Sequence record: PP968062.1
DNA length: 64,000 nucleotides
Reading direction: 5' to 3' (one strand)
From: Pseudomonas phage HPP-Temi
The notes below the pieces were generated by a model that saw only the letters and a list, made by a program, of their open reading frames with translations, was not told the origin of the DNA and searched no databases. Positions 20,574-45,278 of this stretch are shown here, in pieces. The position numbers were made by a program, and so were the translations under genes. How positions within the stretch are numbered: the first letter of the stretch is position 1; each line of letters begins with the position of its first letter.

Positions 20574-20608
20574 TTTGCAATTTCCTTTTGATTAGGGGAG
20601 TTATATCA

Positions 20609-20640
20609 CCTCTGTGATATAGGCTTTATTTATCTTTAAA
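20609..20640 (-). promoter_or_regulatory. Candidate phage early-type promoter (gene strand: TTTAAAGATAAATAAAGCCTATATCACAGAG)
   Basis: Matches the recurring motif TTTnAAA-N2-6-CTATAT(T/C)ACA, which occurs five times in this window. An inverted copy, TTATATCAC, lies at 20601-20609. Confidence 0.4.
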
Positions 20641-21165
20641 TACAGGGTTATCGAAATCGTCTTTATAGAGGATGTCGAAACCCACGATATCAGCCACGTG
20701 CTCACGCTCATTCAACTGGTAACGGAAACCAATAGTCAGAGGCAGGAGATCGTACAGGTCGTTCATATCACGTGCCAGGGGACCAGCCGAGGTAATATCC
20801 AGGATCAGTGCGTTTGAGACGTCGATGCCATTACCTTGTCGGATATGCCAGTTATCGAGAGTGGCACATACGCGATTAGCATCAACAACCAGTGCACGGA
20901 GGATCATGTTTTCTGGGGAAGACACTGCTACCTTCGGATGACCCAGTTCAATACCAGACAACAGGAGTTCATTCTTCTTAACGAAGGACGAGTTCTCCCA
21001 GAGGTACAGCTGGCTCAACGTTCGAGCATGTTCTACAACCGCTTCAACACGTCCTTTACCCAATTGAGCCATGTCACGACGAAGACCTTCAACCATGCGC
21101 TGGCGCATCTCTTCAAAAGAGATAGTTACACGAAACTTTGCACTCGGAAGTTTTTCGAATTTCAT
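20626..21165 (-). CDS. Hypothetical protein (179 aa)
   Basis: ORF in the capsid-proximal block. Confidence 0.5.
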   Translation of the reverse strand: MKFEKLPSAKFRVTISFEEMRQRMVEGLRRDMAQLGKGRVEAVVEHARTLSQLYLWENSSFVKKNELLLSGIELGHPKVAVSSPENMILRALVVDANRVCATLDNWHIRQGNGIDVSNALILDITSAGPLARDMNDLYDLLPLTIGFRYQLNEREHVADIVGFDILYKDDFDNPVFKDK

Positions 21166-21188
21166 TTCATTCTCCTAGAGGGACATAA

Positions 21189-21208
21189 AGCCCCTCTAAT
21201 GAGGGGCT
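21189..21208. terminator. Intergenic hairpin AGCCCCTC taat GAGGGGCT with CATAAA left arm
   Basis: Member of the CATAAAG-hairpin-CTTTATG family. Confidence 0.5.
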
Positions 21209-21213
21209 AATTA

Positions 21214-21624
21214 TCAATCGGACAATATATCGAACGTGATGATTTCTTTCAGGATACCATCTACGTTCTTAAGGCCACGGACACCCAGACGCATTGGGAT
21301 ACCATTTTTGATCATCGCGCGTATCCGATCATGGAACGGACCGAATGGACGGATATACACATTGAAGCCGATGAGTTTAGCCTTTTCGTGTACTGGATCA
21401 ATACCGATTACTAAAGCGGCACCGTTATTGCAATTAATAGACGTGGCTCGTTTGTAATCTGTTTCGGTGTTGCCTGTCAGTTTCGGATGTCCGTACTCAC
21501 AAGCAATAGTACCATCGCGTACAGCGTTACTGAACTTAGAGCTTTCGTAATCTGTACGCATGTATTCGGGGAGGCGATTCAAAGCGATGAACTCTGTACC
21601 TACTCCATTGTCAAATGACAGCAT
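21214..21624 (-). CDS. Hypothetical protein (136 aa)
   Basis: ORF; no motif recognised. Confidence 0.5.
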   Translation of the reverse strand: MLSFDNGVGTEFIALNRLPEYMRTDYESSKFSNAVRDGTIACEYGHPKLTGNTETDYKRATSINCNNGAALVIGIDPVHEKAKLIGFNVYIRPFGPFHDRIRAMIKNGIPMRLGVRGLKNVDGILKEIITFDILSD

Positions 21625-21643
21625 GTACTGCTCCTCTAAAGAA

Positions 21644-21668
21644 GCCCCTCCGAAGAGGGGCCTTTATG
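21644..21668. terminator. Intergenic hairpin GCCCCTC cgaa GAGGGGC followed by CTTTATG
   Basis: GC stem plus conserved TTTATG arm. Confidence 0.5.
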
Positions 21669-21669
21669 T

Positions 21670-23736
21670 TTACTTCAGACGTTTCAGCAGAACAGCTTTC
21701 TCAGTCAGACGACCACGGATCACTTCCAGATAAACACCATCCAGAGTAATCAGACGCATGCGGACGTTTGCCAGACCATTTGCAGTTGCACGAGTGATCA
21801 TGCCTTTCAGTACTTCACGAACAGTCGGGTGGGTACCTTCAGATACCAGAACTGCTTTCTCGTTCAGGATGTTCAGAGTAGCCAGTTGTTCCAGAGTCCA
21901 ACCTACCTGGAAGTTGGTGAACTGGTCGGCTACGCCACGGGTGTTGTCTACTTCGGCCATAGTTACGGCACGGGAGATGATCTGCGCAGCACAAGCCTTC
22001 ACGATTTGCAGAATGTTGGAACCTTTCTTGGTGTTGATGTAATCCAGCAGCTCACCGATGTCATGAGCGAAGTCGTCGATGGTGATGTTCATCGACAGGC
22101 TATCGGCCAGGAAGTCATTGATGGACTTGGTCAGACGATCATTCAAGAAGCGGAAGTAACGAATACTCAGATGACCATTGGTTACCAGTTCTTTCAGTTC
22201 AGTTGCTACGCCGATCAGATCGGTATAGTTAACTAGCTGGCTCAGCTGGTCGAAGGTCTCATCGCTAACGTCCATGTGGTGAACGTTCATCGATTTGTAT
22301 TCATGAGCAGGAATCTCCACGCTCATGGATTCTTCGTCATCTTCGATACCCAGTAGTTCACGCATTGCTGCGCGTACTTCGGATTCGACTTCCAGATCAG
22401 TTGCACCCATGAACACTTGGTTGTCCAGAACTACCGGACGACTTGCTACGGCAGCAAGGCCACCATCTTGCACCAGGCTGGCCACTTCCTCACTAGCCAG
22501 TGCATTGCCACCAATAGTGGAGACGGGAGTTTGTGCAGCGTATACAACGCCGTTAGGACGATATTCACGACGACGCAGGTCATCGTTCAGTTCATGCTTC
22601 AGGTATTCCATTTGCGGGTTCCATTCAACGAATTTCTCTTTTACCACGCCATCCGGGAAACGGACGTAGAAGCGGCAGTAGTGTTCCGGATCAACCAGAG
22701 CACTGTACGGATCTTCGTCACCGACGGTACGTTCCCAATCAACCTGATGTGCCGGTTTGATCAGAACGCCACCGGGATTATGGATCTCATCATACGGACG
22801 GGCGATGTCTACACGGAAACCGGTGGGTTGGTAATACATCGGATCGATCATTACCTGACTGACATCGATCGGTGCCGGCAAATCGGTATCTTCAATTACA
22901 GCAGGTTGCCGCGCTTGAGTCTGGGGTTGTTGAGTGTACATCGGTTGTTGCTCCTGGTTATTGGAGTAGCCACCGTAGATATCAGTACTGACCTCTTCTT
23001 TCGGCATCAAAGGAGCCTGAGAAGGAGTATCATCGTAATACGAACTGGTGGTGCTCGACGTGGTGTTGTTTGTAGTGGTCTGATAGGTGCCAGCCGGCTG
23101 TGCGAACTGTGCCTGAGACGTGGTAGCGAACTGACCCATGTTACCCGGATTGATCGGAGGCAGGTTGCCTGCCATCTGGATACCATTGCCCTGTTGGTAC
23201 ATACCCATCTGCTGTTGTTGCTGCGGACGGTAGTTACCAGACTTGTACGCTTGGATGTCTTGCAGGATCTGCTGGTACATGCCTTGGGCAGTTTGCAGAC
23301 CTTGGAACATGTGCTGAGGAACAGCACCCATTTGTACTAGAGCCGGATAAGATGCTACGCACTGACCCAGGAAGGCTTCGTACATACGCTGAGCGCCCCT
23401 AGGCACTGCATCAGTTTGACTATAGTTCTTGCAGACGCACAGGAACTCGACGAAGTCAACGAGATGTTGACACCACTGCTGGAAGATCTGGTTTTGGAAC
23501 CAGTTCGAGGACAGCAGGTTGTAGGCAAAGATGTGGAGGTTACCTTTGCCAACCGACGATTGTGCAAGCCCACGGAACAGACCAACTGCCTGGAGTACCA
23601 GCTGTTGGTTATTCATCAGGTTCTGGCTAAGTTGGAGTTGAGGTACCCGATCATTACCAGCCGGCAGATTACCATTGAAGGTGCTCTGATCGACTTGTTG
23701 GCAGGAGACCGGGAGTTGAGCTTGTTGGTTGTACAT
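21670..23736 (-). CDS. Q/N-rich low-complexity (prion-like) protein, 688 aa, probable head/virion-associated
   Basis: N-terminal ~270 aa rich in Q/N/G/M/T (PQQQQQMGMYQQGNGIQMAGNLPPINPGNMGQF...TTTNNTTSSTTSSYY...NNQEQQPMYTQQPQTQARQP), then a globular C-terminal half. Confidence 0.55.
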   Translation of the reverse strand: MYNQQAQLPVSCQQVDQSTFNGNLPAGNDRVPQLQLSQNLMNNQQLVLQAVGLFRGLAQSSVGKGNLHIFAYNLLSSNWFQNQIFQQWCQHLVDFVEFLCVCKNYSQTDAVPRGAQRMYEAFLGQCVASYPALVQMGAVPQHMFQGLQTAQGMYQQILQDIQAYKSGNYRPQQQQQMGMYQQGNGIQMAGNLPPINPGNMGQFATTSQAQFAQPAGTYQTTTNNTTSSTTSSYYDDTPSQAPLMPKEEVSTDIYGGYSNNQEQQPMYTQQPQTQARQPAVIEDTDLPAPIDVSQVMIDPMYYQPTGFRVDIARPYDEIHNPGGVLIKPAHQVDWERTVGDEDPYSALVDPEHYCRFYVRFPDGVVKEKFVEWNPQMEYLKHELNDDLRRREYRPNGVVYAAQTPVSTIGGNALASEEVASLVQDGGLAAVASRPVVLDNQVFMGATDLEVESEVRAAMRELLGIEDDEESMSVEIPAHEYKSMNVHHMDVSDETFDQLSQLVNYTDLIGVATELKELVTNGHLSIRYFRFLNDRLTKSINDFLADSLSMNITIDDFAHDIGELLDYINTKKGSNILQIVKACAAQIISRAVTMAEVDNTRGVADQFTNFQVGWTLEQLATLNILNEKAVLVSEGTHPTVREVLKGMITRATANGLANVRMRLITLDGVYLEVIRGRLTEKAVLLKRLK

Positions 23737-23759
23737 CTGACTTTTCCTATTTAAGAAGT

Positions 23760-25388
23760 TTAAGAGACGAAGCGTTGTTGCGCTTTGTCAATAAGTTCAC
23801 GATCTTCTTCACGTCGTTCAACCAATCCGTCGTATCTCACGTTGACGAAGAGGTTGAGTCGGCCACGACCATCCGGGTTGTTCTTCGGTTGGTTTTTATA
23901 CTGACCCACTTCCGCAATCGAAGCGTGGATGAGACGAGAGCTATCGCCGATAAGCGACTTGTTGTGCGCCTTGGATGTCTTAGCGCGATCCTGCGGTACA
24001 AGAATTGAAGTTACCTTAATAACCTTGCTATCACCAGGAGACGACAGCGTATCGAGCTCGCCGTGTTCACTGGTGAGTTTCTTGATGCAGGTGTTGAGCT
24101 TAAACGAACGTTTCAGGGCATCGTTGATTTCCTGTCCAGTCCATTCTTTATCTTTACGGCCTTGGAAGGTATACGCAAACATAGAGACAGCATAGTTAAA
24201 CTCTGCCATCACATACCGGAGAATACTCAGGCGTTTGTCGTACATGCTGGTTTCATCGATGTCGGTGGCGTAAAGGTGGTGCGCCATGTCCGTCATGATT
24301 GCATACAGCAGTTCCCAGATAGTGTTAACCTTCACTCCAACAGAACGAAGTTCTTCGATGGTCATCTCATCGAGCGAGTTGTTGAAACTATCCAGGTGGG
24401 ATTCGATGTTCTCTGCAATCTTACCCTGGTGCTCGAAGTCACCAAAGATCATCAGACCCAGGATGATCCGCCACAGCTGTTTGTTATCCATGTAGCTCGG
24501 CTCATAGAACCGGCTTGGGAAAGCATCCACAACGTACCAGAAACCTGCGACCAATCGACGAATGAAATCCGTCTCTTTCTCTTTAGGTAGAACCAGTACC
24601 ATGTCCCCAGTTGGATGGCGACGTTTCAGAACAGCGGATTCGTAAACGTTCCACTGATCACGAGGATACTCAGACTCAGGGAAGTCTTTCAGATAACCAA
24701 TTTGTACATCTACTCCACCCCAGCGCTTGAACGTTTCAACAACGCCAAACTCACAGAAGAAGTAATGAGCCAGACACGACTCAATGTGCTGTCGGTTATC
24801 AAGATCACGTTTGGTACGCTTGGACATCTCGTTGTGAATCTGAGACCAGATCACGTACATCACTTCACGCTGACCATTGCACATGTAGTGGTGGTCAACT
24901 TGTTTGAACGTGAGTTTAGCTCGACGGAACGGAATGAAGATACTACCATTCAGAACCGAGAAGCCTACGTCAGTCAATACCGGGGAGATCGAATAGGTAG
25001 CACCGTTCAGAGTGCAGATACCGCCATCACGAACATAAGGTAGAAGTACCCGACGTGGGAACATCATTTCGCCTTTATAGCTCGTGATCAATTCGATCAT
25101 GTACGTGTTGCTCTCTGCGATATTGGCTACTCGCTTCGAACCGTACTCACGGGTGATCTCTTCGAAATGTACCTCAGGTTTACACAGACGGTTTCCATGA
25201 TACTTGAAGTCAGCAGGGAACAGCGCCGAGTTGATCTCGAACAACTTATCTACATAGGCACGAGTTGCGTTCATGCCTGTATCAGGGTTGATCTCCATCA
25301 TGTGCTTTACTGCAAGACCGTTGGCTAGGTCTTTGTTGAGCTTAGGTGTGACACCATCAATCCTGCCGATTACATACGGGTCCATCAC
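23760..25388 (-). CDS. Hypothetical protein (542 aa)
   Basis: Long ORF between the Q-rich protein and the capsid gene; RNAP beta/beta-prime signature motifs not seen. Confidence 0.55.
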   Translation of the reverse strand: MMDPYVIGRIDGVTPKLNKDLANGLAVKHMMEINPDTGMNATRAYVDKLFEINSALFPADFKYHGNRLCKPEVHFEEITREYGSKRVANIAESNTYMIELITSYKGEMMFPRRVLLPYVRDGGICTLNGATYSISPVLTDVGFSVLNGSIFIPFRRAKLTFKQVDHHYMCNGQREVMYVIWSQIHNEMSKRTKRDLDNRQHIESCLAHYFFCEFGVVETFKRWGGVDVQIGYLKDFPESEYPRDQWNVYESAVLKRRHPTGDMVLVLPKEKETDFIRRLVAGFWYVVDAFPSRFYEPSYMDNKQLWRIILGLMIFGDFEHQGKIAENIESHLDSFNNSLDEMTIEELRSVGVKVNTIWELLYAIMTDMAHHLYATDIDETSMYDKRLSILRYVMAEFNYAVSMFAYTFQGRKDKEWTGQEINDALKRSFKLNTCIKKLTSEHGELDTLSSPGDSKVIKVTSILVPQDRAKTSKAHNKSLIGDSSRLIHASIAEVGQYKNQPKNNPDGRGRLNLFVNVRYDGLVERREEDRELIDKAQQRFVS

Positions 25389-25393
25389 CCCTC

Positions 25394-26431
25394 CTATCGC
25401 TTTCGGAAAATCTTTTCGAGCAATGCATCTGCCTTGGCTACTTCTGCAATGAAGTCCACGACAGTTCCGACAGAGATATCTCTAAACAGAATGATATCTC
25501 TGATTGCCAAAGGTTCTGGCTCTTCGTCATACAGATGTCGATGGAACATATCGAAACAATCCATTCTACGCTGAGCGTCCTCTTTGGACATTCCTTTCGT
25601 TCCCTCCTTTACAGCTTCTCTCCATTCACGTAGACTGGAATAGATGCCATACTTTTTAAAGTCTCCAGGCTTGATAACAATTGCTTTCGCATTATCTCGC
25701 CTTGCCGCAAACGTCACATTACCCCTTAGGTTAATATGAATACCAACTGGCATATCTGGCATGAAGACAGGCTTCACTTCTAGCAAGTCGCTGCCGAAAG
25801 GCATAAACACGCTTTCAGTTATTCGCTCATCGTCTACAAAGTAGGCGACCGTAGTTGTGGTTGTCCAGATGATATCCTCTTGTCGATAGAGATCATCATT
25901 CTTAGAGAAGAAACAATCACGAGGGAAGAACGTTGTCTTCTTAACTCGATCAGTGGACACCACTTGTACGTTTAGCGCTTCGATCCAAAGCCCATACGGA
26001 TCAGTATCAATGTGATCTAGATCAACGATGAAATAGAAGTCCAGTTCACATGGAGTATTGGTTCCTTTGTTCTTGACAGAGTTAACCAGTTTCTCCAGAT
26101 ACTCTTGGGATAGGTTAGGCCAATGCTTGAGCATAGCACCTACGTTCAACTTAACGTCACCACCCCAAGTGAAGTTGATGCAGACTACAAGTCTGTTCTC
26201 AATTCGGTTTGTTCCAGGTAGATCTAATACCACACCACTACCATCGATGATGCTGATCTCGTGGGTCGACTGATTCAGGTATCGAACTCGTTTGTCAACA
26301 AGCCCTTGTCCGAAGAAGATGTTTTGGAAGACAGATGTTTGCCACCTGTCCATGTAAGACGTGTCCAGAGGACAGTCCAATACAGGATCGTCCTCAATGT
26401 GTCCCGCTCGGGAACGGTTGATCTGTACCAT
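25394..26431 (-). CDS. Hypothetical protein (345 aa)
   Basis: ORF; its N-terminus overlaps the upstream basic-protein ORF by 38 nt. Confidence 0.5.
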   Translation of the reverse strand: MVQINRSRAGHIEDDPVLDCPLDTSYMDRWQTSVFQNIFFGQGLVDKRVRYLNQSTHEISIIDGSGVVLDLPGTNRIENRLVVCINFTWGGDVKLNVGAMLKHWPNLSQEYLEKLVNSVKNKGTNTPCELDFYFIVDLDHIDTDPYGLWIEALNVQVVSTDRVKKTTFFPRDCFFSKNDDLYRQEDIIWTTTTTVAYFVDDERITESVFMPFGSDLLEVKPVFMPDMPVGIHINLRGNVTFAARRDNAKAIVIKPGDFKKYGIYSSLREWREAVKEGTKGMSKEDAQRRMDCFDMFHRHLYDEEPEPLAIRDIILFRDISVGTVVDFIAEVAKADALLEKIFRKR

Positions 26432-26873
26432 TTAAAACTATCCTATCCAATCTCATCTCTACTGGACGCCCTTGACGCCTACTCCGTTCTTGACGAGGCT
26501 TATATCGATCCGTCGTTGATACTTCCGGATTTCTATAATCTCTTCCTCCACGTTTCCCGTGCGCAACACGCGTTTTACCTTTACCCTTCCGCGTGCTGCG
26601 CGTACGCTGTTTTTCTTCAGGGTTACCTCCTGATTCTTTACAGCGTCCATTGGCAATATTAACCTGACGCATTTGCTTCTCGAATCGATTAGCAAAACGG
26701 GTCATATTCTCATCCTGACTAGGATGAAGTTTTTTGGTCGGTTGAGAGTTGGATTGGTAAGACGTATCATTACCAACAGTAGTATCTTTTTCCTGGACGA
26801 CAATGTCGCCGGGATTCATTTGGGTTTCACTGAGCTCTCGCTCAACATGACTCCCGTGTGCACTCCAGAACAT
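26394..26873 (-). CDS. Highly basic small protein (159 aa; Arg/Lys-rich C-terminal half), possible DNA-binding/internal head protein
   Basis: EEKQRTRSTRKGKGKTRVAHGKRGGRDYRNPEVSTTDRYKPRQERSRRQGRPVEMR; directly downstream of the capsid gene. Confidence 0.45.
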   Translation of the reverse strand: MFWSAHGSHVERELSETQMNPGDIVVQEKDTTVGNDTSYQSNSQPTKKLHPSQDENMTRFANRFEKQMRQVNIANGRCKESGGNPEEKQRTRSTRKGKGKTRVAHGKRGGRDYRNPEVSTTDRYKPRQERSRRQGRPVEMRLDRIVLNGTDQPFPSGTH

Positions 26874-26907
26874 TGTCTGATCCTCTAATTGGGGAATATT
26901 TCATCAT

Positions 26908-26939
26908 CACTGTAATATAGATTTGAAATATTTTTTAAT
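26908..26939 (-). promoter_or_regulatory. Candidate early-type promoter (gene strand: CATTAAAAAATATTTCAAATCTATATTACAGTG)
   Basis: TTTCAAA-N1-CTATATTACA motif upstream of gene 26394..26873. Confidence 0.4.
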
Positions 26940-26944
26940 GACGA

Positions 26945-26978
26945 CATAAAGCCTCTACCCGAAGGTAGAGGCTTTATG
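26945..26978. terminator. Extended palindromic hairpin CATAAAGCCTCTACC cgaa GGTAGAGGCTTTATG (15-bp stem)
   Basis: Perfect inverted repeat downstream of the capsid gene stop (27089); best example of the CATAAAG...CTTTATG element. Confidence 0.65.
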
Positions 26979-27088: not shown

Positions 27089-29314
27089 TCAACCCTTAAC
27101 GGCGTCGACCAGGGGCTTGTTCCACTGAGACTCACCCATCACTTCTTCGAAGCCAGTAACGTCGAATTCGAGAGCGAACGGGATGTTGTTTACGTGCAGG
27201 TTGAACGGAATCGCAGCGATTTCGCGAGTAACTTGCTGGCCACCACGGGTGATCGGCAGGTCGGCGATTACGGTCGATACGTAGTAGAATTGACCGAAGC
27301 TGAGGATGTCGTTCTCTTGCGGGTTCTTACGAGTCGGAACCACTACCAGTTTACCGTCGAACAGTTCGTTGTTGGTCGATACCAGGTCGTATTCCAGGTA
27401 AGCGCCCAGGGTACGATCGTCGCCCTTGGTCATCAGGTAGTTAGCGATCTCTTTGTCCGAGCAGAACAGGAACATCGGACGCTCGTCTTGGTTGCCGGAG
27501 ATCACACGGAAGGCTGCTTCGATGTTGGATTCACGGTAGGCCGGGAACAGTACACCTTTAACAGCGTTCAGGATTGCCGAGCAGACATCTTCCCAACGGT
27601 CTTGCGACTTCAGGGTGTCGATCATGTCAGGCAGGTGCAGCTTCTTGTAGCGGTAGGTCGGACGCATTACTGCGGACAGAGCACCTTCAACAGCACCGAA
27701 CTGCGGACGGTCGAAACCGTTAGCGGTTACTTCTTTCAGCTGAGCCAGGTAGTTCAGCAGGCGCTTAACAGCGTTGTTGCTGTTACGGATGTTGGTGTTG
27801 ACAGTCAGAGCCTTAACAACTTCGCCCGGACCTTCTTCGTCCATGGTGCTCAGCGGCAGGGTTACCGGAGCGTGCATCGGAATCGGGTGACGGAATTGCA
27901 GGGCACGAGTTTGCAGCAGGTGACCACGCTGACGACGGTTGGTGTTGGTGAAGCGGGTATCGAGGTCGAAACCAACGATTTCCATTTCGCCAATGCTGTC
28001 GACCAGTGCTTTACCATCGCCAGTTTCCAGATCGATACGACGCTTGTCTTCGTCCAGGATACGGTCGATAGTTACTTCACCAATGGTGAAGCGGCTGTCG
28101 CCACGGCTCAGGCTAACGTGACCGCTGAATTGCATGCTCAGACGCAGAACCCACTTACGTTGTTCCAGTTCTTTCATGCCAGCAGTTTGAGCTGCATCAG
28201 TAGTACGAGTAACGGCCGATACGGTCAGGTCGTCAGACCAGAAGTCGATCTTGGCGCCACGGGTATCACCAACCAGGTCCGGCTGGAACACTGCGCGCGG
28301 CAGACGTTCGGTTTGGAACTTGATGACTTTACCTTGGAACTTCACGTACAGAGCCTTCAGGCGGCCCGACGGATCGATGGTGTCCGAAATGTCCAGCATG
28401 CCTTTGTTGATCAGCAGGTTGGCGTTCGAGTTACCCATCAGGTCCAGTTTAACGCCCGGCTTCAGCGGAGCAGTTTCGATGGACATGTTTTGTTCGTTGA
28501 TAACGGTTACCGGAGGCAGCAGAGCCGGATCAGCGAAGTACTTCAGGTTGGTACCAGCAGGATCGATGGCCGGGATCAGTGCAGTGCACTCGTCGTCCAG
28601 GATGGACGGATCACGATAGGCTTCAACCATGTTGACTTCTTGGTTGTCGAGCTTCTGACCGGAAACAGCGTGGTAAACGTCTTTCATTACCGCGATGTAC
28701 GGCAGTACCTGAACCACACCGCCCTCGATCGGGTTGATTACGGTGGTCGGATAGATACGCTCAGCGAACTCGTCCTGACGGGAAGCAGCCAGGTTATAAC
28801 CAACGGTCACAACGCGGAAGTCACGCTGGGATTTCTCGTTGTAGTTTTCCAGACCAACGCCAGCAGCAGCTTCGAAAGTTTGGATCGAACCAGCCGGGCC
28901 ATCAAAGCGGTGTTCTACCGAAATGACGTTCTTGTCAGTGGAAGCAATTTTCTTACCAACTTGTTTCAGAGCCTTAACGTACTCAGTGGAGTTGGACATT
29001 GCCAGAGCAGCCATGGTAGCGGCCGACAGTTGGTTCTCGCCTACACGGCTTGCAGCGCCTTCGAAGGATTCGAAGCCACAGGTACGGGCGATCTTTTGCA
29101 GGCTAGCGTACATGCCAGCAGCGCTTTGAGCATCTTCGTCGCTCAGTTGACCGAAGGATTCCAGGCCGATTTTACTGATCAGTTTGCTACCGGCAGACAG
29201 AACGCTGTCACCGTAGTCTTTTTCCAGATCCAGTTTACCCAGGAAGTTTTCCATGGAGAAACGAGTCAGGTTTTGTTCGCCGTTCACTTTGAACAGAGCT
29301 TTAAGGTCTTTCAT
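27089..29314 (-). CDS. Putative major capsid protein (741 aa), phiKZ gp120-like by size and context
   Basis: Length 741 aa (remembered phiKZ gp120 about 747 aa). Strong long hairpin terminator downstream; neighbouring head/inner-body genes. The + strand ORF 27194..29320 is an antisense artifact. Confidence 0.55.
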   Translation of the reverse strand: MKDLKALFKVNGEQNLTRFSMENFLGKLDLEKDYGDSVLSAGSKLISKIGLESFGQLSDEDAQSAAGMYASLQKIARTCGFESFEGAASRVGENQLSAATMAALAMSNSTEYVKALKQVGKKIASTDKNVISVEHRFDGPAGSIQTFEAAAGVGLENYNEKSQRDFRVVTVGYNLAASRQDEFAERIYPTTVINPIEGGVVQVLPYIAVMKDVYHAVSGQKLDNQEVNMVEAYRDPSILDDECTALIPAIDPAGTNLKYFADPALLPPVTVINEQNMSIETAPLKPGVKLDLMGNSNANLLINKGMLDISDTIDPSGRLKALYVKFQGKVIKFQTERLPRAVFQPDLVGDTRGAKIDFWSDDLTVSAVTRTTDAAQTAGMKELEQRKWVLRLSMQFSGHVSLSRGDSRFTIGEVTIDRILDEDKRRIDLETGDGKALVDSIGEMEIVGFDLDTRFTNTNRRQRGHLLQTRALQFRHPIPMHAPVTLPLSTMDEEGPGEVVKALTVNTNIRNSNNAVKRLLNYLAQLKEVTANGFDRPQFGAVEGALSAVMRPTYRYKKLHLPDMIDTLKSQDRWEDVCSAILNAVKGVLFPAYRESNIEAAFRVISGNQDERPMFLFCSDKEIANYLMTKGDDRTLGAYLEYDLVSTNNELFDGKLVVVPTRKNPQENDILSFGQFYYVSTVIADLPITRGGQQVTREIAAIPFNLHVNNIPFALEFDVTGFEEVMGESQWNKPLVDAVKG

Positions 29315-38000: not shown

Positions 38001-38005
38001 TGGTG

Positions 38006-38638: not shown

Positions 38639-38822
38639 AATTACTCCTTAATGCATGTTTTCTATTTTGACAATATCCCACTGTGACAATTCAGTGTCAC
38701 GGTAGAACATTTGAAGTGCATCATCGATTCCCATTTGAGAGGGAGCCTCCCAGACGGTACCATTGTAACACGTGATTTTCCAGAGCATGACTACTCCATG
38801 TTAAAAGTTCTTAGGGGGCGAA

Positions 38823-40004
38823 TTATTTGATAACAACCGCTTCCGAGAGAGTTTCCATACTACCGATAACCAGTTTGGATTTCTCTTCATCGGGTTCTTC
38901 CATTGCTTCACGCAGGAGTTCACCGATAGTTTTGGGTTGAACGTCATCGCTGATTTCACGAGAACATGCCGAGTCTTCGAACATGTCGGTCATCCCGAAG
39001 TCGTCATCAAAACCAGAGTCGTAGTACGAGTCTTCCATGGAGTAACTCGATTCATCGGAAGAGTCCGAAGACTCACCGTACATCTCGTCGAAGTCATGTT
39101 CCATTTCTTTCTCGTACATCTCGCTCATCGCTTTGTTATCTTCTTCCTGTGCTTTACGACGAGAAGTCTTGTAGAACGGCAGCAGGCGTTGCAGGACTTT
39201 ATGGAACTTCTTCTTGTTGATCAACCAGCTACTGGAATAACGAGACAGTTTTACTTCAGCTGCCTTGATAGTCGGATCAGCATACATCGCTGCTATCAAT
39301 TTCTCCAGATCGTACAGATGATCCTTCGAAGGGTTGGTATACGCGGGATGCTCTTGGAGAGCGAACATCACGAACGTACGCATGTCAGTGATGAAGTACT
39401 GGTTGTGGTGCTTGTTGATCTCGACGTAGACCGGATCGGTATGACGATGGTAGTCGAACTCTTCAGCCCATGTCAGGTTGCGAACCTTAGTGGGACGAGG
39501 ACCTTCTACCCAACGAACAGTCGGATGTTTCTCACGGATGTTCCAACCATGCATGCGGTCGTATTCAGTCGGTTCTTCTTTGAACCAGGTGAAGTTACCT
39601 TCGCCACGTTCGAGGATCTTTTTACACCAGCTAATGTTGATGCTGTACTTGCGTCCTTCGATCAAGTTGCAGGGTTTATCCAGAACAGCGACATAGCTGT
39701 CATGACCATTGGCCACGATACCAAGAACGGTAGCTTCGAAGGTTTCATAACGCTGACCGGGATACACGCGTTCATTTTCGTCCAGGAAACGGAGAGAACA
39801 GGACTCGAAGATTGCACGGGTACCAGCAGGGAAATGAGCGCGGCCGAAGGGGCTCTCGGCTTTACGTTCCTTGCGACGTTCGATAACCCATTCCAGTTTT
39901 TCTTTGGTCAGACGGGTGGTGGGTTCGCGATATTGTTTCATGGTAATTTCCTTTTTACATTTGGGTTTAGTTGAGTACATCTCAATGCATCCTTTCCAAG
40001 ACAC
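38823..40004 (-). CDS. Hypothetical protein (393 aa) with acidic Ser/Asp/Glu-rich C-terminal tail
   Basis: C-terminus ESSDSSDESSYSMEDSYYDSGFDDDFGMTDMFEDS. The + strand ORF 38937..39974 is antisense. Confidence 0.5.
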   Translation of the reverse strand: MSWKGCIEMYSTKPKCKKEITMKQYREPTTRLTKEKLEWVIERRKERKAESPFGRAHFPAGTRAIFESCSLRFLDENERVYPGQRYETFEATVLGIVANGHDSYVAVLDKPCNLIEGRKYSINISWCKKILERGEGNFTWFKEEPTEYDRMHGWNIREKHPTVRWVEGPRPTKVRNLTWAEEFDYHRHTDPVYVEINKHHNQYFITDMRTFVMFALQEHPAYTNPSKDHLYDLEKLIAAMYADPTIKAAEVKLSRYSSSWLINKKKFHKVLQRLLPFYKTSRRKAQEEDNKAMSEMYEKEMEHDFDEMYGESSDSSDESSYSMEDSYYDSGFDDDFGMTDMFEDSACSREISDDVQPKTIGELLREAMEEPDEEKSKLVIGSMETLSEAVVIK

Positions 40005-40036
40005 ATTGAGATGGGGTCTCCGAAGAGACCCATCTA

Positions 40037-40639
40037 TTATTCCTGGGTCAGTTCCCCAAGACGACCTTCAGCTTTCATACGGCGGATCTCCGAAATGGAC
40101 TTACCGTATTTTGCAGCCAGTTCCTTTACGGTGCCTTCAGGGGCAGGTTTACTCATGTTGCGAAAGTTTTGCTTGGCGATGTTGTAGTTTTGAGCCTGAA
40201 GAGTTCTCAGCTCAGAACGAACCAAAGCATTGCCAATGCACTGAGAGGTGAAAGTGACCATGAAAGACTTCAGCTTATCACGGTACGTATTGACCCATGC
40301 ACAGGATTCATCCACGTGCGTGCACATGTACTCGGCGGCTTTGGCATATTCCAACAAGCCGACTGCATCTGGTCCAACATCCTGGTAAACCATTTTGTTG
40401 AAAAGGCCCAGTGCGATATCAGATGCACGTTCAGCTGTAATGAAATCGATTGCATCATTAATGATCAACGTTTCCAGATCTTTGAACTTAACCGCATCGT
40501 TTTTGATCAACGCCAGCATAGCGTCAACCTTTACGGTCAACATCATGTCTTCATTACGACGATTGACCAGTTCATTGGTCTGCTCTTGGGTGAACACATG
40601 GTCCACGTTTTGGAAGACTTTCGACAGACGACTATCCAT
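40037..40639 (-). CDS. Hypothetical protein (200 aa) with C-terminal helix-turn-helix resembling sigma region 4
   Basis: C-terminus GTVKELAAKYGKSISEIRRMKAEGRLGEL resembles the sigma-70 region 4 / HTH pattern. Confidence 0.4.
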   Translation of the reverse strand: MDSRLSKVFQNVDHVFTQEQTNELVNRRNEDMMLTVKVDAMLALIKNDAVKFKDLETLIINDAIDFITAERASDIALGLFNKMVYQDVGPDAVGLLEYAKAAEYMCTHVDESCAWVNTYRDKLKSFMVTFTSQCIGNALVRSELRTLQAQNYNIAKQNFRNMSKPAPEGTVKELAAKYGKSISEIRRMKAEGRLGELTQE

Positions 40640-40812
40640 TTATTTATCCTCATTTACAGTGAATGCAAACATAGTACATTTCGGTTTAGCCGGATGTTGA
40701 CACCATTCCTTCGAAACCTTACCATCGGGTTTGGTCAGTTCATAATAGAACTCACCGCAAGCAGCAGCGAGTCCCATCAGAACTGCAAGAAAACCTACAC
40801 CTATTTTGGTTT

Positions 40813-41199
40813 TCACTTAGCGATGATCCGTTGTACGAAATGTTGGAGATTTGCAACCAGCCGATCGAACTCTTCCTCGGTCAGCTGATCACGATGAGAT
40901 TCCAGAAGTACTTCTACCTCCGGAAGAACGTTCAGAGCGATGTCCAGCTGGATACGCGAAATGAACTCTGCGACATCCAGTTCACGATCACGCCTGAGCC
41001 GATTCACCAACTTGCGATGTTGATCACTATTACGGTAGGCCGAGATCTTATCGATCAGGATGTCCGATATACTGCTTTCGATCTGCTGTACTTCGGTCGG
41101 ACCTTCTTCCTTGTAGGCTGCTTTTACCGCCAGAACAGCTGCTACTGCGGTAGAGGCAACAGCGACTGCAATGAGACCATACTTGATGTAGTTTTCCAT
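40813..41199 (-). CDS. Single-pass membrane protein (128 aa; N-terminal TM + helical domain)
   Basis: N-terminal GLIAVAVASTAVAAVLAV, then a charged helical region. Confidence 0.45.
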   Translation of the reverse strand: MENYIKYGLIAVAVASTAVAAVLAVKAAYKEEGPTEVQQIESSISDILIDKISAYRNSDQHRKLVNRLRRDRELDVAEFISRIQLDIALNVLPEVEVLLESHRDQLTEEEFDRLVANLQHFVQRIIAK

Positions 41200-41204
41200 G
41201 ATAT

Positions 41205-41531
41205 TTACTCCCAGCCCATTTCGGCTTTGAATTCATCAACGCGGGTATCAACGATGGCTTTATATTCGCCATCGCTATCACGCATCTCTAGTGCCATCTT
41301 GATACGAAGGCCCAGCAGGCGTCGTGAGAAATCCCTGCGCACCTTGAACTCTTGTTCACTTTCAGCGTTGATGCGAGTAATTTCGAAGAGAGCCTCCAGC
41401 TTCTTCGAGAACTCGTTGAAGTAGATCTTGTCCGTGACTTTCTGAGCCAGGATATCTACACCGATCATGATACCAGCTACGGCGAAACCAATGCCAACAC
41501 CGATCGCTACTTCTTTGAGAGTCTGGTTCAT
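41205..41531 (-). CDS. Single-pass membrane protein (about 108 aa from MNQTLKEVAIGVGIGFAVAGIMIGV...); same architecture as 40813..41199
   Basis: The internal Met at 41531 gives an N-terminal TM + helical domain. The longer ORF-track N-terminus (from 41690) overlaps a small upstream ORF. Confidence 0.4.
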   Translation of the reverse strand: MNQTLKEVAIGVGIGFAVAGIMIGVDILAQKVTDKIYFNEFSKKLEALFEITRINAESEQEFKVRRDFSRRLLGLRIKMALEMRDSDGEYKAIVDTRVDEFKAEMGWE

Positions 41532-41568
41532 TTTATATTTTCCTATTTTCGAATTTGGGGGATATTGC

Positions 41569-41721
41569 TTAACGCAGTTCAGCTTTGGGCTTTGCAGCTT
41601 CTTCCTTAGCTTTACGACGTTCTTCCAGCCAGTTGTTGTGGTACATGGCAACGCCAGCGAAGCCAACAACGGCGACGGCGATAAGGCCAAGTTCCAATGC
41701 GTTTTCTTTAATGAAGCTCAT
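41569..41721 (-). CDS. Small single-TM peptide (50 aa), not in ORF track
   Basis: Manual translation: MSFIKENALELGLIAVAVVGFAGVAMYHNNWLEERRKAKEEAAKPKAELR. Cognate stop TAA at 41569-41571. Confidence 0.35.
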   Translation of the reverse strand: MSFIKENALELGLIAVAVVGFAGVAMYHNNWLEERRKAKEEAAKPKAELR

Positions 41722-41726
41722 GGTGA

Positions 41727-42068
41727 TTATCCCTTCAGAGTGCTGTCGGCATTGAAGACATCGGGACCAACCGAGAGACTTCCCAGAAGATCCGGCGCGA
41801 GGTATACGGAGTTGAGAGTTTCGTAAACACCGGCAACGGCATCTACTTTGACCAGACTAGAACTACGCAGGGAAACCCACTCACCGTTGCGATAGGTTTC
41901 ACCGACCAGTACACGAACGTCATCGACGTCGTTACGGTGTGGCCACAGTACCTTGCCTTCCACCACTTCTACGTTACGTGCATGGTAGACCAGTTTACCG
42001 TTCATGCGCGCAACGATGTTCGGACGCTGAAGATCATCGATAACTTTAACAGCGACTGCCTTTTCCAT
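41727..42068 (-). CDS. Hypothetical protein (113 aa)
   Basis: ORF; no TM. Confidence 0.45.
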   Translation of the reverse strand: MEKAVAVKVIDDLQRPNIVARMNGKLVYHARNVEVVEGKVLWPHRNDVDDVRVLVGETYRNGEWVSLRSSSLVKVDAVAGVYETLNSVYLAPDLLGSLSVGPDVFNADSTLKG

Positions 42069-42079
42069 TTTGTATCTCC

Positions 42080-42235
42080 TTATTTAGTTACAAGCATTTC
42101 TTGGCCATTCGGCCCGATACGATGACCGAGGATAACCTCGGATTCTTTTTCAACTTTCGGAGCTTCATAGGAACCACCGTAAACAACAGCAGCACCCAGA
42201 ACCATACCAACCAGAATCATTACGATAGCTTTCAT
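42080..42235 (-). CDS. Small secreted/membrane peptide (51 aa), not in ORF track
   Basis: Manual translation: MKAIVMILVGMVLGAAVVYGGSYEAPKVEKESEVILGHRIGPNGQEMLVTK. Signal-peptide-like N-terminus; sits directly downstream of promoter motif 42267-42303. Confidence 0.35.
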   Translation of the reverse strand: MKAIVMILVGMVLGAAVVYGGSYEAPKVEKESEVILGHRIGPNGQEMLVTK

Positions 42236-42266
42236 GTTGAGTTTCCTTCTCAGAATAGGGGTTTAT

Positions 42267-42303
42267 CACATTTGTAATATACGTTTCAAATGGATTAAAA
42301 TGT
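42267..42303 (-). promoter_or_regulatory. Candidate early-type promoter (gene strand: CATTTTAATCCATTTGAAACGTATATTACAAATGTG)
   Basis: TTTGAAA-N2-TATATTACA motif, 30-70 nt upstream of the small ORF start at 42235. Confidence 0.45.
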
Positions 42304-42326
42304 ACATTCGAATGAGATAAAGGAAA

Positions 42327-42342
42327 GGGCTCCTAAGAGCCC
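42327..42342 (-). terminator. Hairpin GGGCTC ctaa GAGCCC after the stop of 42349..42630
   Basis: Short GC stem immediately after the stop codon, followed on the minus strand by CTTTCCTTTATCTC. Confidence 0.4.
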
Positions 42343-42348
42343 ATCCAG

Positions 42349-42630
42349 TTACAGCTTGTTGAGGAACTTGCGGATCTCTTCACGCAGCTCGCGCAGAGTT
42401 GCGGTCATGAGGATCTTTTCTTCTGCATCGCTGATCAGCCTTTCAGCCAGCCCTTCCAGTTCGATCTTGCGTTCGTCACTGGTGTAATGAGTCGGCAGAC
42501 GATCGTTTGCATCGCGCAGTTGTTGCAGAATTTCTTCCGCGGTGTTTTCGTCGGTCCAGGTGATAGCGATCATAGAGAGAACGCCACCGATGAGAACGCA
42601 GCCGAGACCTTTAGCGATATTGGAAAACAT
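42349..42630 (-). CDS. Single-pass membrane protein (93 aa)
   Basis: N-terminal TM GLGCVLIGGVLSMIAITW + helical domain. Confidence 0.45.
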   Translation of the reverse strand: MFSNIAKGLGCVLIGGVLSMIAITWTDENTAEEILQQLRDANDRLPTHYTSDERKIELEGLAERLISDAEEKILMTATLRELREEIRKFLNKL

Positions 42631-42658
42631 GGTAAATCCTTACAGTTGGAAGTATATG

Positions 42659-42859
42659 TTAAGAGGTTGCTTCTTCGGGAGTAGCTTCGGTCGGTTCCGA
42701 TTCCGGAGTAGCGGGCGCTTCGGTTTCAGCCTCGGGTTCTGTGGCGGGGGTTTCAGCTTCCACCGGTTCCGCAGACAGGGTATCATACAACTTGTAAGCA
42801 GCGGTACCCAGAGCGAGGACAGCTGCAACAGCACCAGAGGCGATCAGAATCTTTTTCAT
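42659..42859 (-). CDS. Small single-TM protein with acidic E/P/T/A-repeat tail (66 aa)
   Basis: MKKILIASGAVAAVLALGTAAY..., then EPVEAETPATEPEAETEAPATPESEPTEATPEEATS. Confidence 0.45.
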   Translation of the reverse strand: MKKILIASGAVAAVLALGTAAYKLYDTLSAEPVEAETPATEPEAETEAPATPESEPTEATPEEATS

Positions 42860-42873
42860 GGGCGGTTTTCCTT

Positions 42874-43203
42874 TTAAGGCAGGTCTTTGTATATGACCTG
42901 TTTGATGTAATGGTCGATCCGCGGTTCAGCGGTCTTCCTGATTGGTTCGTATTCCTTGGAGAGGATTACGGTTACTTCCTCCCAACAAGCATCACGTAAT
43001 AACTCGTAACGCTTCTCGGGAGTTCCAACAAGGTACTGGCTCCTACGGAGCAAGACACAGTGATAGCTATCAATAATCTTACCAGCATCATTAACAACCT
43101 TGTTCACCATGTCGATATGGCGCTGCATCAGATAGGCAGTTCCAGCACAACAGGCTACAACCACGCCAGTCACTACAGCGCCGATGACGTAGACGGTTCT
43201 CAC
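42874..43203 (-). CDS. Single-pass membrane protein (109 aa), apparent GTG start overlapping the upstream stop
   Basis: N-terminal TM VIGAVVTGVVVACCAGTAYL. The rev-comp of 43201-43203 is GTG, inside a GTGA overlap. Confidence 0.4.
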   Translation of the reverse strand: MRTVYVIGAVVTGVVVACCAGTAYLMQRHIDMVNKVVNDAGKIIDSYHCVLLRRSQYLVGTPEKRYELLRDACWEEVTVILSKEYEPIRKTAEPRIDHYIKQVIYKDLP

Positions 43204-43295
43204 GAACCTACTACTTCGTCGTAGATGGCACCTGCAATGTTCATTGCCATGATACCAACGGTTACCACGAAGACGGTCTTGAAGAGAGTGTTCAT
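43200..43295 (-). CDS. Tiny hydrophobic peptide (31 aa), not in ORF track
   Basis: Manual translation: MNTLFKTVFVVTVGIMAMNIAGAIYDEVVGS. ATGA overlap with the upstream peptide gene. Confidence 0.3.
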   Translation of the reverse strand: MNTLFKTVFVVTVGIMAMNIAGAIYDEVVGS

Positions 43296-43402
43296 ACTTG
43301 TTCTCCTTGAGCAGCGTTGAAGACTTCGTCTACAGCCCAGCAGGCAGCGTTGACGACGATGATGCAAGCAGCGAGTTTAACACAGAAACGTGCAAGGTCC
43401 AT
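43292..43402 (-). CDS. Tiny hydrophobic peptide (36 aa), not in ORF track
   Basis: Manual translation: MDLARFCVKLAACIIVVNAACWAVDEVFNAAQGEQV. Start about 35 nt downstream of promoter motif 43436-43469. Confidence 0.3.
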   Translation of the reverse strand: MDLARFCVKLAACIIVVNAACWAVDEVFNAAQGEQV

Positions 43403-43435
43403 GGTGAATCTCCTTGATTTGATTGGCTATTATCA

Positions 43436-43469
43436 CACTTGTAATATAGCCTTTAAATTGGTTTGAATG
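43436..43469 (-). promoter_or_regulatory. Candidate early-type promoter (gene strand: CATTCAAACCAATTTAAAGGCTATATTACAAGTG)
   Basis: TTTAAA-N2-CTATATTACAAG; best match to the window consensus. Confidence 0.45.
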
Positions 43470-43476
43470 TAATCGG

Positions 43477-43911
43477 TTAAACTACCGACTTGCGGGTAAT
43501 GCGTTCGATCAGGTTCTGATCAGTGATGAAGTGACCCAGTACACGACCGATGATATCATCGGCCATGTGTTCGTTGTGGATGTTCACATCAGTGCACAGG
43601 TTGTTGATCAGGCCAGCTTGGCGCTGAAGACCTTGAGTGTTAGCGATGGACTTCTTGCGATATTCCTTGATCACTTCAACGAACTGACGTTCACCGGTAA
43701 TGAAGCGACTGTTCAGACTGGAATAACGCAGGATGTTTTCCATCTTGCCGATCATGTTGTCCATGGTCGACATGTGCCACTTCCAGATATCGGACTTGAT
43801 ATCCTTGGCCAGTTCACGTTGATGGTTCATGTAGATGGCATAAGACATGTAAGCGATGAAGGCGATTACACTCAGGGCTACGATTACGTTGATTGCGATA
43901 TTCATTTTCAA
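43477..43911 (-). CDS. Single-pass membrane protein (144 aa)
   Basis: N-terminal TM NIAINVIVALSVIAFIAYMSYAIYM. Confidence 0.45.
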   Translation of the reverse strand: MKMNIAINVIVALSVIAFIAYMSYAIYMNHQRELAKDIKSDIWKWHMSTMDNMIGKMENILRYSSLNSRFITGERQFVEVIKEYRKKSIANTQGLQRQAGLINNLCTDVNIHNEHMADDIIGRVLGHFITDQNLIERITRKSVV

Positions 43912-43978
43912 TTTCCTTTTGGGTTGGAGTGAAGCGACATAAAGCCCTGATCGGAATGACCAGGACTTTTAAGTTTGG

Positions 43979-44452
43979 TTAAGCAAGGGCCGCCATCCAG
44001 GGCGGTACAACGACCACCATCTCGTTTGGGATATGACCGCTGAATAGTTCTAATGCTTGTTTCACATCAGGCCATTTCAACATGCCGTTTCCGCAACCGA
44101 GCGGGGGTACAACGATCTTCCACTTAGGGTCGATCCCATCTTCTACATCAATGTTGTCGACGATCCATTGAAGACCGTCATTGATGTAGCTTAACTGTGA
44201 ATCATCTTGCCACCGATCTTTAGTCGGGAACATCATGTAACGTTTACCATCATCACCTAGATAGATGGCTGGGTTACCGATTGTGATGATACGGTACTTG
44301 CAGTCATGCTTGTACTTCTGATACAGCTCGGGGAACTTATCGCGAAACCTCTCGGCTAGACCAGTTCCCATTACGCCTCGGGTGTTAACAGTGATAAGGT
44401 AAAGATCCCCAGGCTCTTTAAAGATGTCTTTACCTATTACGAATTCAGCCAT
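43979..44452 (-). CDS. Macrodomain protein, TARG1/OARD1/DarG-like (putative ADP-ribosyl hydrolase; candidate anti-defence factor)
   Basis: LYLITVNTRGVMGTGLAERFRDKFPE parallels the TARG1 N-terminal motif (C-x-MGAGIA-x-x-FK-x-KF), and VVPPLGCGNGMLKWPDVKQALELF parallels the TARG1 region (MPRIGCGLDRLQWENV). Length 157 aa fits a stand-alone macrodomain. Confidence 0.6.
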   Translation of the reverse strand: MAEFVIGKDIFKEPGDLYLITVNTRGVMGTGLAERFRDKFPELYQKYKHDCKYRIITIGNPAIYLGDDGKRYMMFPTKDRWQDDSQLSYINDGLQWIVDNIDVEDGIDPKWKIVVPPLGCGNGMLKWPDVKQALELFSGHIPNEMVVVVPPWMAALA

Positions 44453-44521
44453 AGTGAATGGCTCCTTTGCCCTACAAAAATCTAATGGTCATGAGACCAC
44501 AACTCATCAGATTGTGCAAGA

Positions 44522-44686
44522 TTAGGCGAACTCGTTTACCGCCTTTTTTACTGCTATAGTTAGGGTAATTGCAGCGGTTATCATCGCGAGTCCAGCGGTT
44601 GCATATTGGAGCAGTTCACGGTTGTGCGCATACTCGCGTCTGGATTTCTCGTTGTCTTCGTGGGACTTTTTGTGATCGTAGAACAT
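44522..44686 (-). CDS. Small single-TM peptide (54 aa), not in ORF track
   Basis: Manual translation: MFYDHKKSHEDNEKSRREYAHNRELLQYATAGLAMITAAITLTIAVKKAVNEFA. Confidence 0.3.
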   Translation of the reverse strand: MFYDHKKSHEDNEKSRREYAHNRELLQYATAGLAMITAAITLTIAVKKAVNEFA

Positions 44687-44695
44687 GATGTATCC

Positions 44696-44839
44696 TTAGA
44701 GACCGTTAAAGATCAAAGTGAGAATCAAAGCAACTGCAAAGGTAGCGATTACGCCTTCGAGTGTAATCCAGCTCGGAGGTGTGTTGGGGTCATTACGCTT
44801 TTCACGGGGGAACATTTCTTCCTTAGCTTGTTCTTGCAT
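44696..44839 (-). CDS. Small single-TM peptide (47 aa), not in ORF track
   Basis: Manual translation: MQEQAKEEMFPREKRNDPNTPPSWITLEGVIATFAVALILTLIFNGL. About 30 nt downstream of promoter motif 44868-44900. Confidence 0.3.
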   Translation of the reverse strand: MQEQAKEEMFPREKRNDPNTPPSWITLEGVIATFAVALILTLIFNGL

Positions 44840-44846
44840 AAAGCAC

Positions 44847-45278
44847 CTAATAGAACTGGTTTATTCCCTCTTGTGATATAGGGTTTAAAATGCTTTGAAT
44901 GCAAGGTGGACATTCACGCAGTTCTATAATCAACGCTTCTATGTTACCTTCTTCATTACAATACGTTTGTACATTAGTTATTTCCCCATTTAGACTATTG
45001 AATGCTAGCCTGTGGTGATGATACAGATCTCTGAAGTGCCCTTCAAAGTAACTAGCCGATACCGGATAACGCTGGAGTTCCATTAGGATGTATTGATAAC
45101 CCTTATTGAACTCTTGGGCATTATGGTTGTAAATGAAGTTGTGTTGCAGTTTGATGTATTCAGTTGCCAAAGAGTACAGATGGTTTATTACATCCATGTT
45201 GAGGTCAATGAACCCCTTTAAAGATCCAATATAGTTGTATGACCATACGTGGTCAATACGAAAGAGCACGTTCTGCAT
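44847..45278 (-). CDS. Hypothetical protein (143 aa)
   Basis: ORF; His/Tyr/Asn-rich; preceded by terminator hairpin 45300-45321. Confidence 0.45.
   Translation of the reverse strand: MQNVLFRIDHVWSYNYIGSLKGFIDLNMDVINHLYSLATEYIKLQHNFIYNHNAQEFNKGYQYILMELQRYPVSASYFEGHFRDLYHHHRLAFNSLNGEITNVQTYCNEEGNIEALIIELRECPPCIQSILNPISQEGINQFY
44868..44900 (-). promoter_or_regulatory. Candidate early-type promoter (gene strand: GCATTCAAAGCATTTTAAACCCTATATCACAAGAG), embedded in the 3' end of ORF 44847..45278
   Basis: TTTTAAA-N3-CTATATCACAAG motif. Confidence 0.4.

Follow-up and report, generated by a model that had tools for sequence, protein, structure and literature searches.

Do the AT-rich repeats that recur ahead of minus-strand genes in Pseudomonas phage HPP-Temi act as promoters, and if so, for which RNA polymerase? 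The stretch analysed here, called the window below, comprises 64,000 nucleotides (nt) of this phage (PP968062.1), and all coordinates are positions in it. A sequence-only reading had noticed five copies of such a motif and likened them to the early promoters of phage phiKZ, which are recognised by the virion RNA polymerase (vRNAP). The closest records are PA1C, PS119XW, HHBS36_1, phiLBG22, BRkr and phiHQ, and judged by sequence the window is that of a phiKZ-like Pseudomonas aeruginosa jumbo phage (Chimalliviridae) of the PA1C/PS119XW group. The five elements are very probably early promoters of this phiKZ-like jumbo phage, a reading supported by the published consensus, by reciprocal matrix scans, by conservation at orthologous positions and by the genes that lie downstream.

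Five sites share one fixed register

When the minus strand was read at each place named, all five copies were found at the coordinates given and all on that strand. Exact matches to TATATYACA numbered five in 64 kb, every one on the minus strand, where 0.83 was expected, and none of 100 dinucleotide-preserving shuffles held five or more copies. Cores with one mismatch were not above chance in the window (17 found, 26 expected); since they add nothing, the set of five is sharply bounded.

The five sites aligned without gaps over about 36 nt as ATTnAAA-N4-WWTnAAR-N2-TATATYAC-N5-T-G-A. The TATAT(T/C)AC core and both upstream boxes were present in all five, with WWTnAAR 2 nt and ATTnAAA 13 nt from the core. 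This register revises the earlier description in several respects. The variable spacing of 2–6 nt proposed between box and core turned out to be an artefact, and it becomes a fixed 2 nt once the box of site 1 is read as AATAAAG and not as the TTTAAAG further upstream. Of the flanks ascribed to the core, the preceding C was retained in four of the five sites, while the trailing ACA(A)G is not general. Two conserved parts had been missed, namely the second upstream box ATTnAAA, 4 nt further 5', and an invariant G-A exactly 6 nt past TATATYAC, with a T before the G in four of five sites. The sites do precede start codons, as had been proposed, but the suggested distance of 30–70 nt was too wide, the 3' end of the core lying 33–40 nt from the start. 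In all five sites the motif is followed by a Shine-Dalgarno sequence and then by the start codon, 27–34 nt past the conserved G.

The extended pattern in fixed register, WTNAARNNTATATYACANNNNNGA, recovered all five sites at no more than one mismatch, with only 0.32 matches expected even at two mismatches. Its sole additional match, at two mismatches, was 29964-29987, which is the orthologue of the phiKZ late promoter p119L. With a 44-nt position matrix the five sites scored 48–58 bits, and the runner-up among 127,914 positions on both strands scored −7. In leave-one-out tests, each omitted site ranked right behind the four training sites. Neither this matrix nor one built from phiKZ (see below) revealed further copies in the window.

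Gene context was taken from the deposited annotation of PA1C, which is colinear with the window. By that annotation four of the five cores are intergenic, while only 7.0% of the region is non-coding (P about 1e-4). All five sites lie on the minus strand, co-oriented with their genes.

The motif agrees with the published early-promoter consensus

The phiKZ early promoter has been listed as TATATTAC, and the early consensus of phage 201phi2-1 as TTAWTAVAA_HYWTTTRARR_BTATATTACDWHDGTG (PMC7058600 Table 2). The window motif fits both strings position for position, and the phiKZ consensus that the sequence-only reading had invoked was thus correct. Early promoters of jumbo phages are AT-rich elements of about 10 nt, centred near −10 and read by the injected vRNAP (PMC7598289), and those of phiKZ have a T-rich element upstream of −19 and 5' untranslated regions (5'UTRs) mostly of 31–40 nt (PMC8244752). 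For the phiKZ promoters we relied on Ceyssens et al. 2014 as relayed in PMC8244752, PMC10914365 and PMC7598289. In Bacillus phage AR9, early promoters conform to AAATATATATTAT-(6N)-G, whose final G is the start point (PMC5312081). A start at the conserved G of the window sites would place TATATYAC at −14 to −7, which fits both a core near −10 and the (6N)-G arrangement of AR9.

Reciprocal scans of phiKZ and the window

The phiKZ genome (AF399011) was scanned with a matrix built from only the five window sites. The scan returned 27 matches above 12 bits with a TATATYAC core, all of them on the leading strand and just upstream of annotated starts, and about four weaker matches with cores such as TATATCAT bring the total to about 31. 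Published counts of phiKZ early promoters are 28 and 32 (PMC8244752, PMC10914365, PMC13282480), and agreement with the published set was judged by counts and named genes only. The matches included PHIKZ054, PHIKZ260, gene 068 of the non-virion RNA polymerase (nvRNAP), and 070.1, which heads the 071–074 block; PHIKZ054 has been reported to have an early promoter motif together with a primary transcription start site, and PHIKZ260 to have a primary start site (PMC8244752). High-scoring matches lay directly upstream of PHIKZ105 and PHIKZ216, and PHIKZ014 is located downstream of the PHIKZ010.1 site. RNA sequencing at 2-min resolution places PHIKZ014, 105 and 216 with the most abundant transcripts of the first 10 min (PMC10914614).

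Conversely, a matrix made from the 27 phiKZ sites recovered exactly the same five sites in the window, at 27–43 bits, while the next best position scored −4.4 and the best score in 20 shuffled windows was 5.3. Site 4 had the top score with both matrices. Of the 32 window and phiKZ sites taken together, 31 have T at −1 and 29 have G at +1. The leaders predicted from this start are 27–34 nt long in the window, and their median in phiKZ is 37 nt.

The sites are conserved among relatives

In PA1C all five sites were found at orthologous positions, scoring 39–59 bits with the next best at −1.6, and the substitutions seen there were confined to non-consensus positions of the sites. The window is 83% identical to the PA1C-group records in the variable region and about 91% near the capsid gene; over the capsid gene, identity is 87% to PhiPA3 and 74% to phiKZ. 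None of the records in the phage collection approached full identity to the window.

The region of site 2, downstream of the capsid gene, was aligned across seven genera, represented by eight phages (the window, PA1C, PhiPA3, Phabio, 201phi2-1, Psa21, Noxifer and phiKZ). All eight shared a common layout, in which a terminator hairpin with CTTTATG is followed by an A-run, a TATATYAY core and 38–48 nt to the start codon. No variation was seen in the terminator tail, in a portion of the A-run, in AT.TATAT.A or in the TG at core+6/+7, and the motif is kept across the seven genera while its flanks diverge. The capsid terminator is likewise retained, with the tail GCTTTATG..GT invariant in the eight phages and the GC hairpin plus CTTTATG..GT kept in sequence and position. 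A phiKZ terminator motif, ...GGBYTTATKYYGT, has been described that is like the capsid terminator here (PMC10914365).

Proposed mechanism and points against it

In the mechanism we propose, a multisubunit vRNAP would enter with the phage DNA at infection and recognise double-stranded promoters through the AT-rich core TATATYAC, with help from WWTnAAR (about −23 to −17) and ATTnAAA (about −34 to −28), the two A/T boxes lying upstream of it. Transcription would start at the conserved G, six bases past the core on the minus strand (positions in Table 1), giving mRNAs whose leaders carry a Shine-Dalgarno sequence. These mRNAs would encode the nvRNAP gp123 operon, the gp125 homologue and small membrane proteins in three units, which also hold a Macro-domain protein and the gp010.1–gp014 block. 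Such targets, among them homologues of nvRNAP gp123, gp010.1, gp014 and gp102.1, fit an early role, and nvRNAP subunits are early genes (PMC7598289, PMC13282480).

Several points weigh against this interpretation. The recognising enzyme and the early timing are carried over from the phiKZ literature, and it is by analogy that we infer the timing, the exact +1 positions and the extents of the transcription units in HPP-Temi. That HPP-Temi has a vRNAP would follow from its family, homologues of the phiKZ vRNAP genes (gp80, 149, 178 and 180) lying outside the window and only nvRNAP gp123 inside. The reciprocal scans are not fully independent, since it was the window matrix that selected the 27 phiKZ sites. 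In addition, site 1 had no counterpart in the matrix scan of phiKZ, and site 5 overlaps coding sequence, falling within the final ~11 codons of the gp102 homologue upstream.

Alternative interpretations

Host sigma-70-type promoters, in which TATATT would serve as −10 box and an upstream A/T box as −35 box, are a highly improbable reading of the sites. The TATATT of the core does resemble TATAAT, and a consensus scan called site 4 as TTTAAA-17-GATAAT (9/12). However, this was the only one of the five sites to be called, and the −10 hexamer of the call is not the conserved core. The conserved boxes stand 2 and 13 nt from TATATT instead of 16–18 nt, and sigma-70-like calls showed no enrichment relative to shuffles (13 vs 9.1 and 9 vs 11.4). 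Moreover, infection of the phiKZ type is insensitive to rifampicin and does not need the host RNA polymerase (PMC13282480, PMC7598289).

We also find it very unlikely that the sites are structure-dependent elements, whether hairpin promoters of the N4 type or dyad operators TATATYAC-N4-GTGATAWW for a dimeric regulator. Site 1 is a perfect 8-bp inverted repeat with a DNA fold z of −3.8, and seven of the 32 window and phiKZ sites match at least six of the eight dyad positions, at a null probability of about 0.01 per site. Nevertheless, sites 2, 3 and 5 folded no better than shuffles as single-stranded DNA, only site 1 being significant, and the mean dyad match in phiKZ was 4.0/8, with many sites at 1–3. 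Where the core has T for C, the partner G is unchanged, indicating no covariation. Given this and the low mean match, the dyad is a feature of a subclass, represented in the window by sites 1, 3 and 4 (site 4 at only 5/8 positions), and a preference for G-A-T-A as the initial transcribed sequence can account for it.

Scarcely more than a slight chance attaches to a third reading, in which the sites are middle or late promoters read by the nvRNAP. In its favour, the genes sit among late structural genes, and some phiKZ genes, such as PHIKZ054, have both early and middle promoters (PMC8244752). The published motifs are TACT at about −22 after an A-repeat for middle promoters and T(−3)ATG(+1) for late ones (sources include PMC7598289 and PMC8244752), but neither is common to the five sites, and TATG stands at the conserved start in none of them. 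A true late-type site in the window, the p119L orthologue (29968-29971), scored poorly with the early matrices; it is scored apart from the five sites, which means that the early and late classes are distinguishable here. This orthologue extends over 29956-29990 (minus strand), with TATG at 29971-29968 and the ATG of the gp119 homologue at 29924, and the window retains TATATTnCTATGTAGACA ahead of gene 119 just as phiKZ does, where it belongs to p119L. Furthermore, promoter 2 would drive an nvRNAP subunit, whose first expression cannot depend on the nvRNAP.

Finally, non-functional repeats or chance recurrence, such as remnants of duplicated cassettes like the near-identical promoter-plus-leader duplicates of phiKZ (2665 vs 4516, for example), can practically be dismissed, being effectively refuted by conservation and position: the expectation is below one, orientation and distance to start codons are strict, and the motif is kept across seven genera while the flanks diverge.

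Predicted transcription units and their surroundings

With the five sites taken as early promoters, the units that they would control are listed in Table 1.

Table 1. Predicted early promoters in the window, with the genes and terminators assigned to them
Feature	Coordinates	Strand	Details
Predicted early promoter 1	20606-20641	-	ATTTAAA-gata-AATAAAG-cc-TATATCAC-agaggT-G-A; predicted +1 20607; 5'UTR 34 nt; ATG 20573
Gene of promoter 1: phiKZ gp125 homologue, 233 aa	19872-20573	-	28% identity, E 6e-16
Predicted early promoter 2	26904-26939	-	ATTAAAA-aata-TTTCAAA-tc-TATATTAC-agtgaT-G-A; predicted +1 26905; 5'UTR 32 nt; ATG 26873
Terminator of (late) major capsid gene	26941-26972	-	hairpin GCCTCTACC-TTCG-GGTAGAGGC + tail TTTATGTCGT, read from sequence
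Predicted early operon of promoter 2	21670-26873	-	159-aa ORF, gp122, gp123 and gp124 homologues
159-aa ORF	26394-26873	-	first in promoter 2 operon
gp122 homologue	25394-26431	-	promoter 2 operon
nvRNAP subunit gp123 homologue	23760-25388	-	promoter 2 operon; 70% identity over 540 aa
gp124 homologue	21670-23736	-	promoter 2 operon
Terminator-like hairpin beyond promoter 2 operon	~21661-21644	-	
Predicted early promoter 3	42266-42301	-	ATTTTAA-tcca-TTTGAAA-cg-TATATTAC-aaatgT-G-A; predicted +1 42267; 5'UTR 32 nt; ATG 42235
Predicted long early unit of promoter 3	38823-42235	-	gp010.1, gp011 and gp012 homologues, small transmembrane proteins, 200-aa ORF, gp014 homologue
Predicted early promoter 4	43433-43468	-	ATTCAAA-ccaa-TTTAAAG-gc-TATATTAC-aagtgT-G-A; predicted +1 43434; 5'UTR 32 nt; ATG 43402
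Genes of promoter 4	42349-43402	-	five small predicted transmembrane proteins: 36, 31, 109, 66 and 93 aa
Terminator-like hairpin ending promoter 4 unit	42342-42327	-	GGGCTC-TTAG-GAGCCC + TTTCCTTTAT
Predicted early promoter 5	44865-44900	-	ATTCAAA-gcat-TTTAAAC-cc-TATATCAC-aagagG-G-A; predicted +1 44866; 5'UTR 27 nt; ATG 44839
gp102 homologue	44847-45278	-	3' end overlapped by promoter 5
Genes of promoter 5	43477-44839	-	gp102.1 homologue, 54-aa transmembrane protein, Macro-domain protein, 144-aa transmembrane protein
aa, amino acids; ORF, open reading frame.

For sites 2, 3 and 5 there are phiKZ sites in orthologous positions, namely 120657 upstream of PHIKZ121, 4516 upstream of PHIKZ010.1 and 106875 upstream of PHIKZ102.1, respectively. 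Site 4 lies downstream of the gp104 homologue and may be compared with phiKZ site 108063, which follows PHIKZ104 and precedes PHIKZ105. The unit of promoter 1 is probably monocistronic, because a terminator-like hairpin (19837-19816) follows the gp125 homologue. Site 1 is conserved in PA1C, and by sequence comparison the gp125 homologue appears to have gained an early promoter of its own, absent from phiKZ and specific to this lineage. Between the gp124 and gp125 homologues, two ORFs of 179 and 136 aa occupy 20626-21624 on the minus strand; the PA1C annotation records no phiKZ similarity for them. At site 2, the terminator of the capsid gene directly abuts the upstream side of the promoter.

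The unit of promoter 3 begins with a gp010.1 homologue of 51% identity to phiKZ and includes a homologue of the ribosome-binding early protein gp014 (38823-39941, minus strand; probable start 39941) of 80% identity. The matrix scan found no second early-type promoter within this unit, as is also the case in phiKZ. Just upstream of the gp014 homologue, a non-coding leader (39975-40031, minus strand) is nearly identical in phiKZ (6110-6170) and has as its computed fold a tandem hairpin of very high stability (−34.7 kcal/mol, z = −7.2). Judged by eye, its second stem shows one change between the window and phiKZ, U-A to C-G, which suggests compensation. Rfam gave no match to the leader, nor did any Rfam family attain its gathering score elsewhere in the window, and the leader lacks a separate early-type promoter. 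It might have a role in stabilising or processing a very abundant early gp014 mRNA.

Sites 3, 4 and 5 fall inside what the sequence-only reading had called a small-membrane-protein island. The name is apt: 13 of 17 consecutive small ORFs at 40640-44839 contain a strongly hydrophobic 19-mer. It is reasonable to infer, by analogy with phiKZ, that the island is expressed early in HPP-Temi. The gp102.1 homologue, first in the unit of promoter 5, is a protein of 47 aa with a predicted transmembrane segment and 45% identity to phiKZ. Among the small membrane proteins lies the gp104 homologue, a Macro-domain protein (43979-44452, minus strand; PF01661, E 3.5e-7), which could have an ADP-ribose-related counter-defence function. 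A greedy longest-ORF gene map called spurious plus-strand ORFs in this island and was dropped. Long antisense ORFs were also seen on the plus strand at 10104-12128 (674 aa), 27194-29320 (708 aa) and 54270-55673 (467 aa), exactly opposite long minus-strand genes that include the major capsid gene; they are probably artefacts of codon bias.

The gene order around the island departs from that of phiKZ. Homologues of the phiKZ gp010.1–gp024 early block (phiKZ 4500-12000) are found at ~33400-42300, between the gp104 and gp117.4 homologues, where phiKZ carries gp105–gp116, and the block bears an early promoter (site 3) at its own boundary. Positions 40000-41180 are 95% identical to phiKZ-group phages, whereas the genomes are otherwise about 74–83% identical, which suggests a recent exchange of part of the block. 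In phiKZ itself, near-identical promoter-plus-5'UTR cassettes precede unrelated genes, with ~50 nt identical through the Shine-Dalgarno sequence. The pairs are 2665 vs 4516 (2640-2720 vs 4490-4570) and, at about these positions of the record, 70339 vs 246707, suggesting that promoter-leader modules are duplicated or recombining in that phage.

Significance

This promoter class is already well described, and the window provides five new instances in a phage of the PA1C group; the current understanding of jumbo-phage transcription is unchanged. The additions made here are modest and consist of the fixed register, a further upstream box, the conserved pair T(−1)G(+1), predicted starts and units, and a promoter of the gp125 homologue that appears lineage-specific. 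It provides a map of five predicted early transcription units in an uncharacterised PA1C-group jumbo phage, in which the sites single out, as probable genes of immediate host takeover, those for small membrane proteins, a Macro-domain protein and a gp014-type ribosome binder. With the refined consensus, early promoters can be annotated throughout the Chimalliviridae, and cassettes for early expression can be designed for use in phage engineering; cassettes of this kind are already employed in phiKZ (PMC12676376). A bolder view, which we consider rather unlikely, is either that the dyad subclass forms a distinct 'immediate-early' tier, through an especially strong initial transcribed sequence or by serving as operator for a phage factor that ends early transcription, or that promoter cassettes of ~45 nt are recombination modules that move early gene blocks.

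Comparison with known systems

Coliphage N4 has promoters with the same role, serving a polymerase that is injected with the genome. The N4 virion polymerase is a single-subunit enzyme and recognises a DNA hairpin, whereas a hairpin is not common to the window sites. Bacillus phage AR9 resembles the window in its AT-rich core and in the start-point G that comes after six further bases, and it injects a multisubunit vRNAP; its early transcription is not prevented by chloramphenicol (PMC5312081). Unlike HPP-Temi, AR9 has a uracil-containing genome, another host and a longer AT core, and its genes show no sequence-level orthology. The cores of phages OBP, N1M2 and EL, ATATTATY or ACATTATY, differ from that of the window, these consensus strings being bioinformatic predictions (PMC7058600).

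The likeness to phiKZ extends from the core, TATATTAC or in some sites TATATCAC, to the T/A-rich upstream boxes, the co-orientation with genes and the leaders of 30–40 nt, and the targets are again nvRNAP subunits, the gp010.1–gp014 block and gp102.1, with three of the five window sites in orthologous positions. The window differs from phiKZ in that its sites are more uniform, three of the five have a GTGATA initial sequence, and the gp010.1–024 block is relocated. With 201phi2-1 the window sites share the same two upstream boxes, the same core and a GTG at the same offset.

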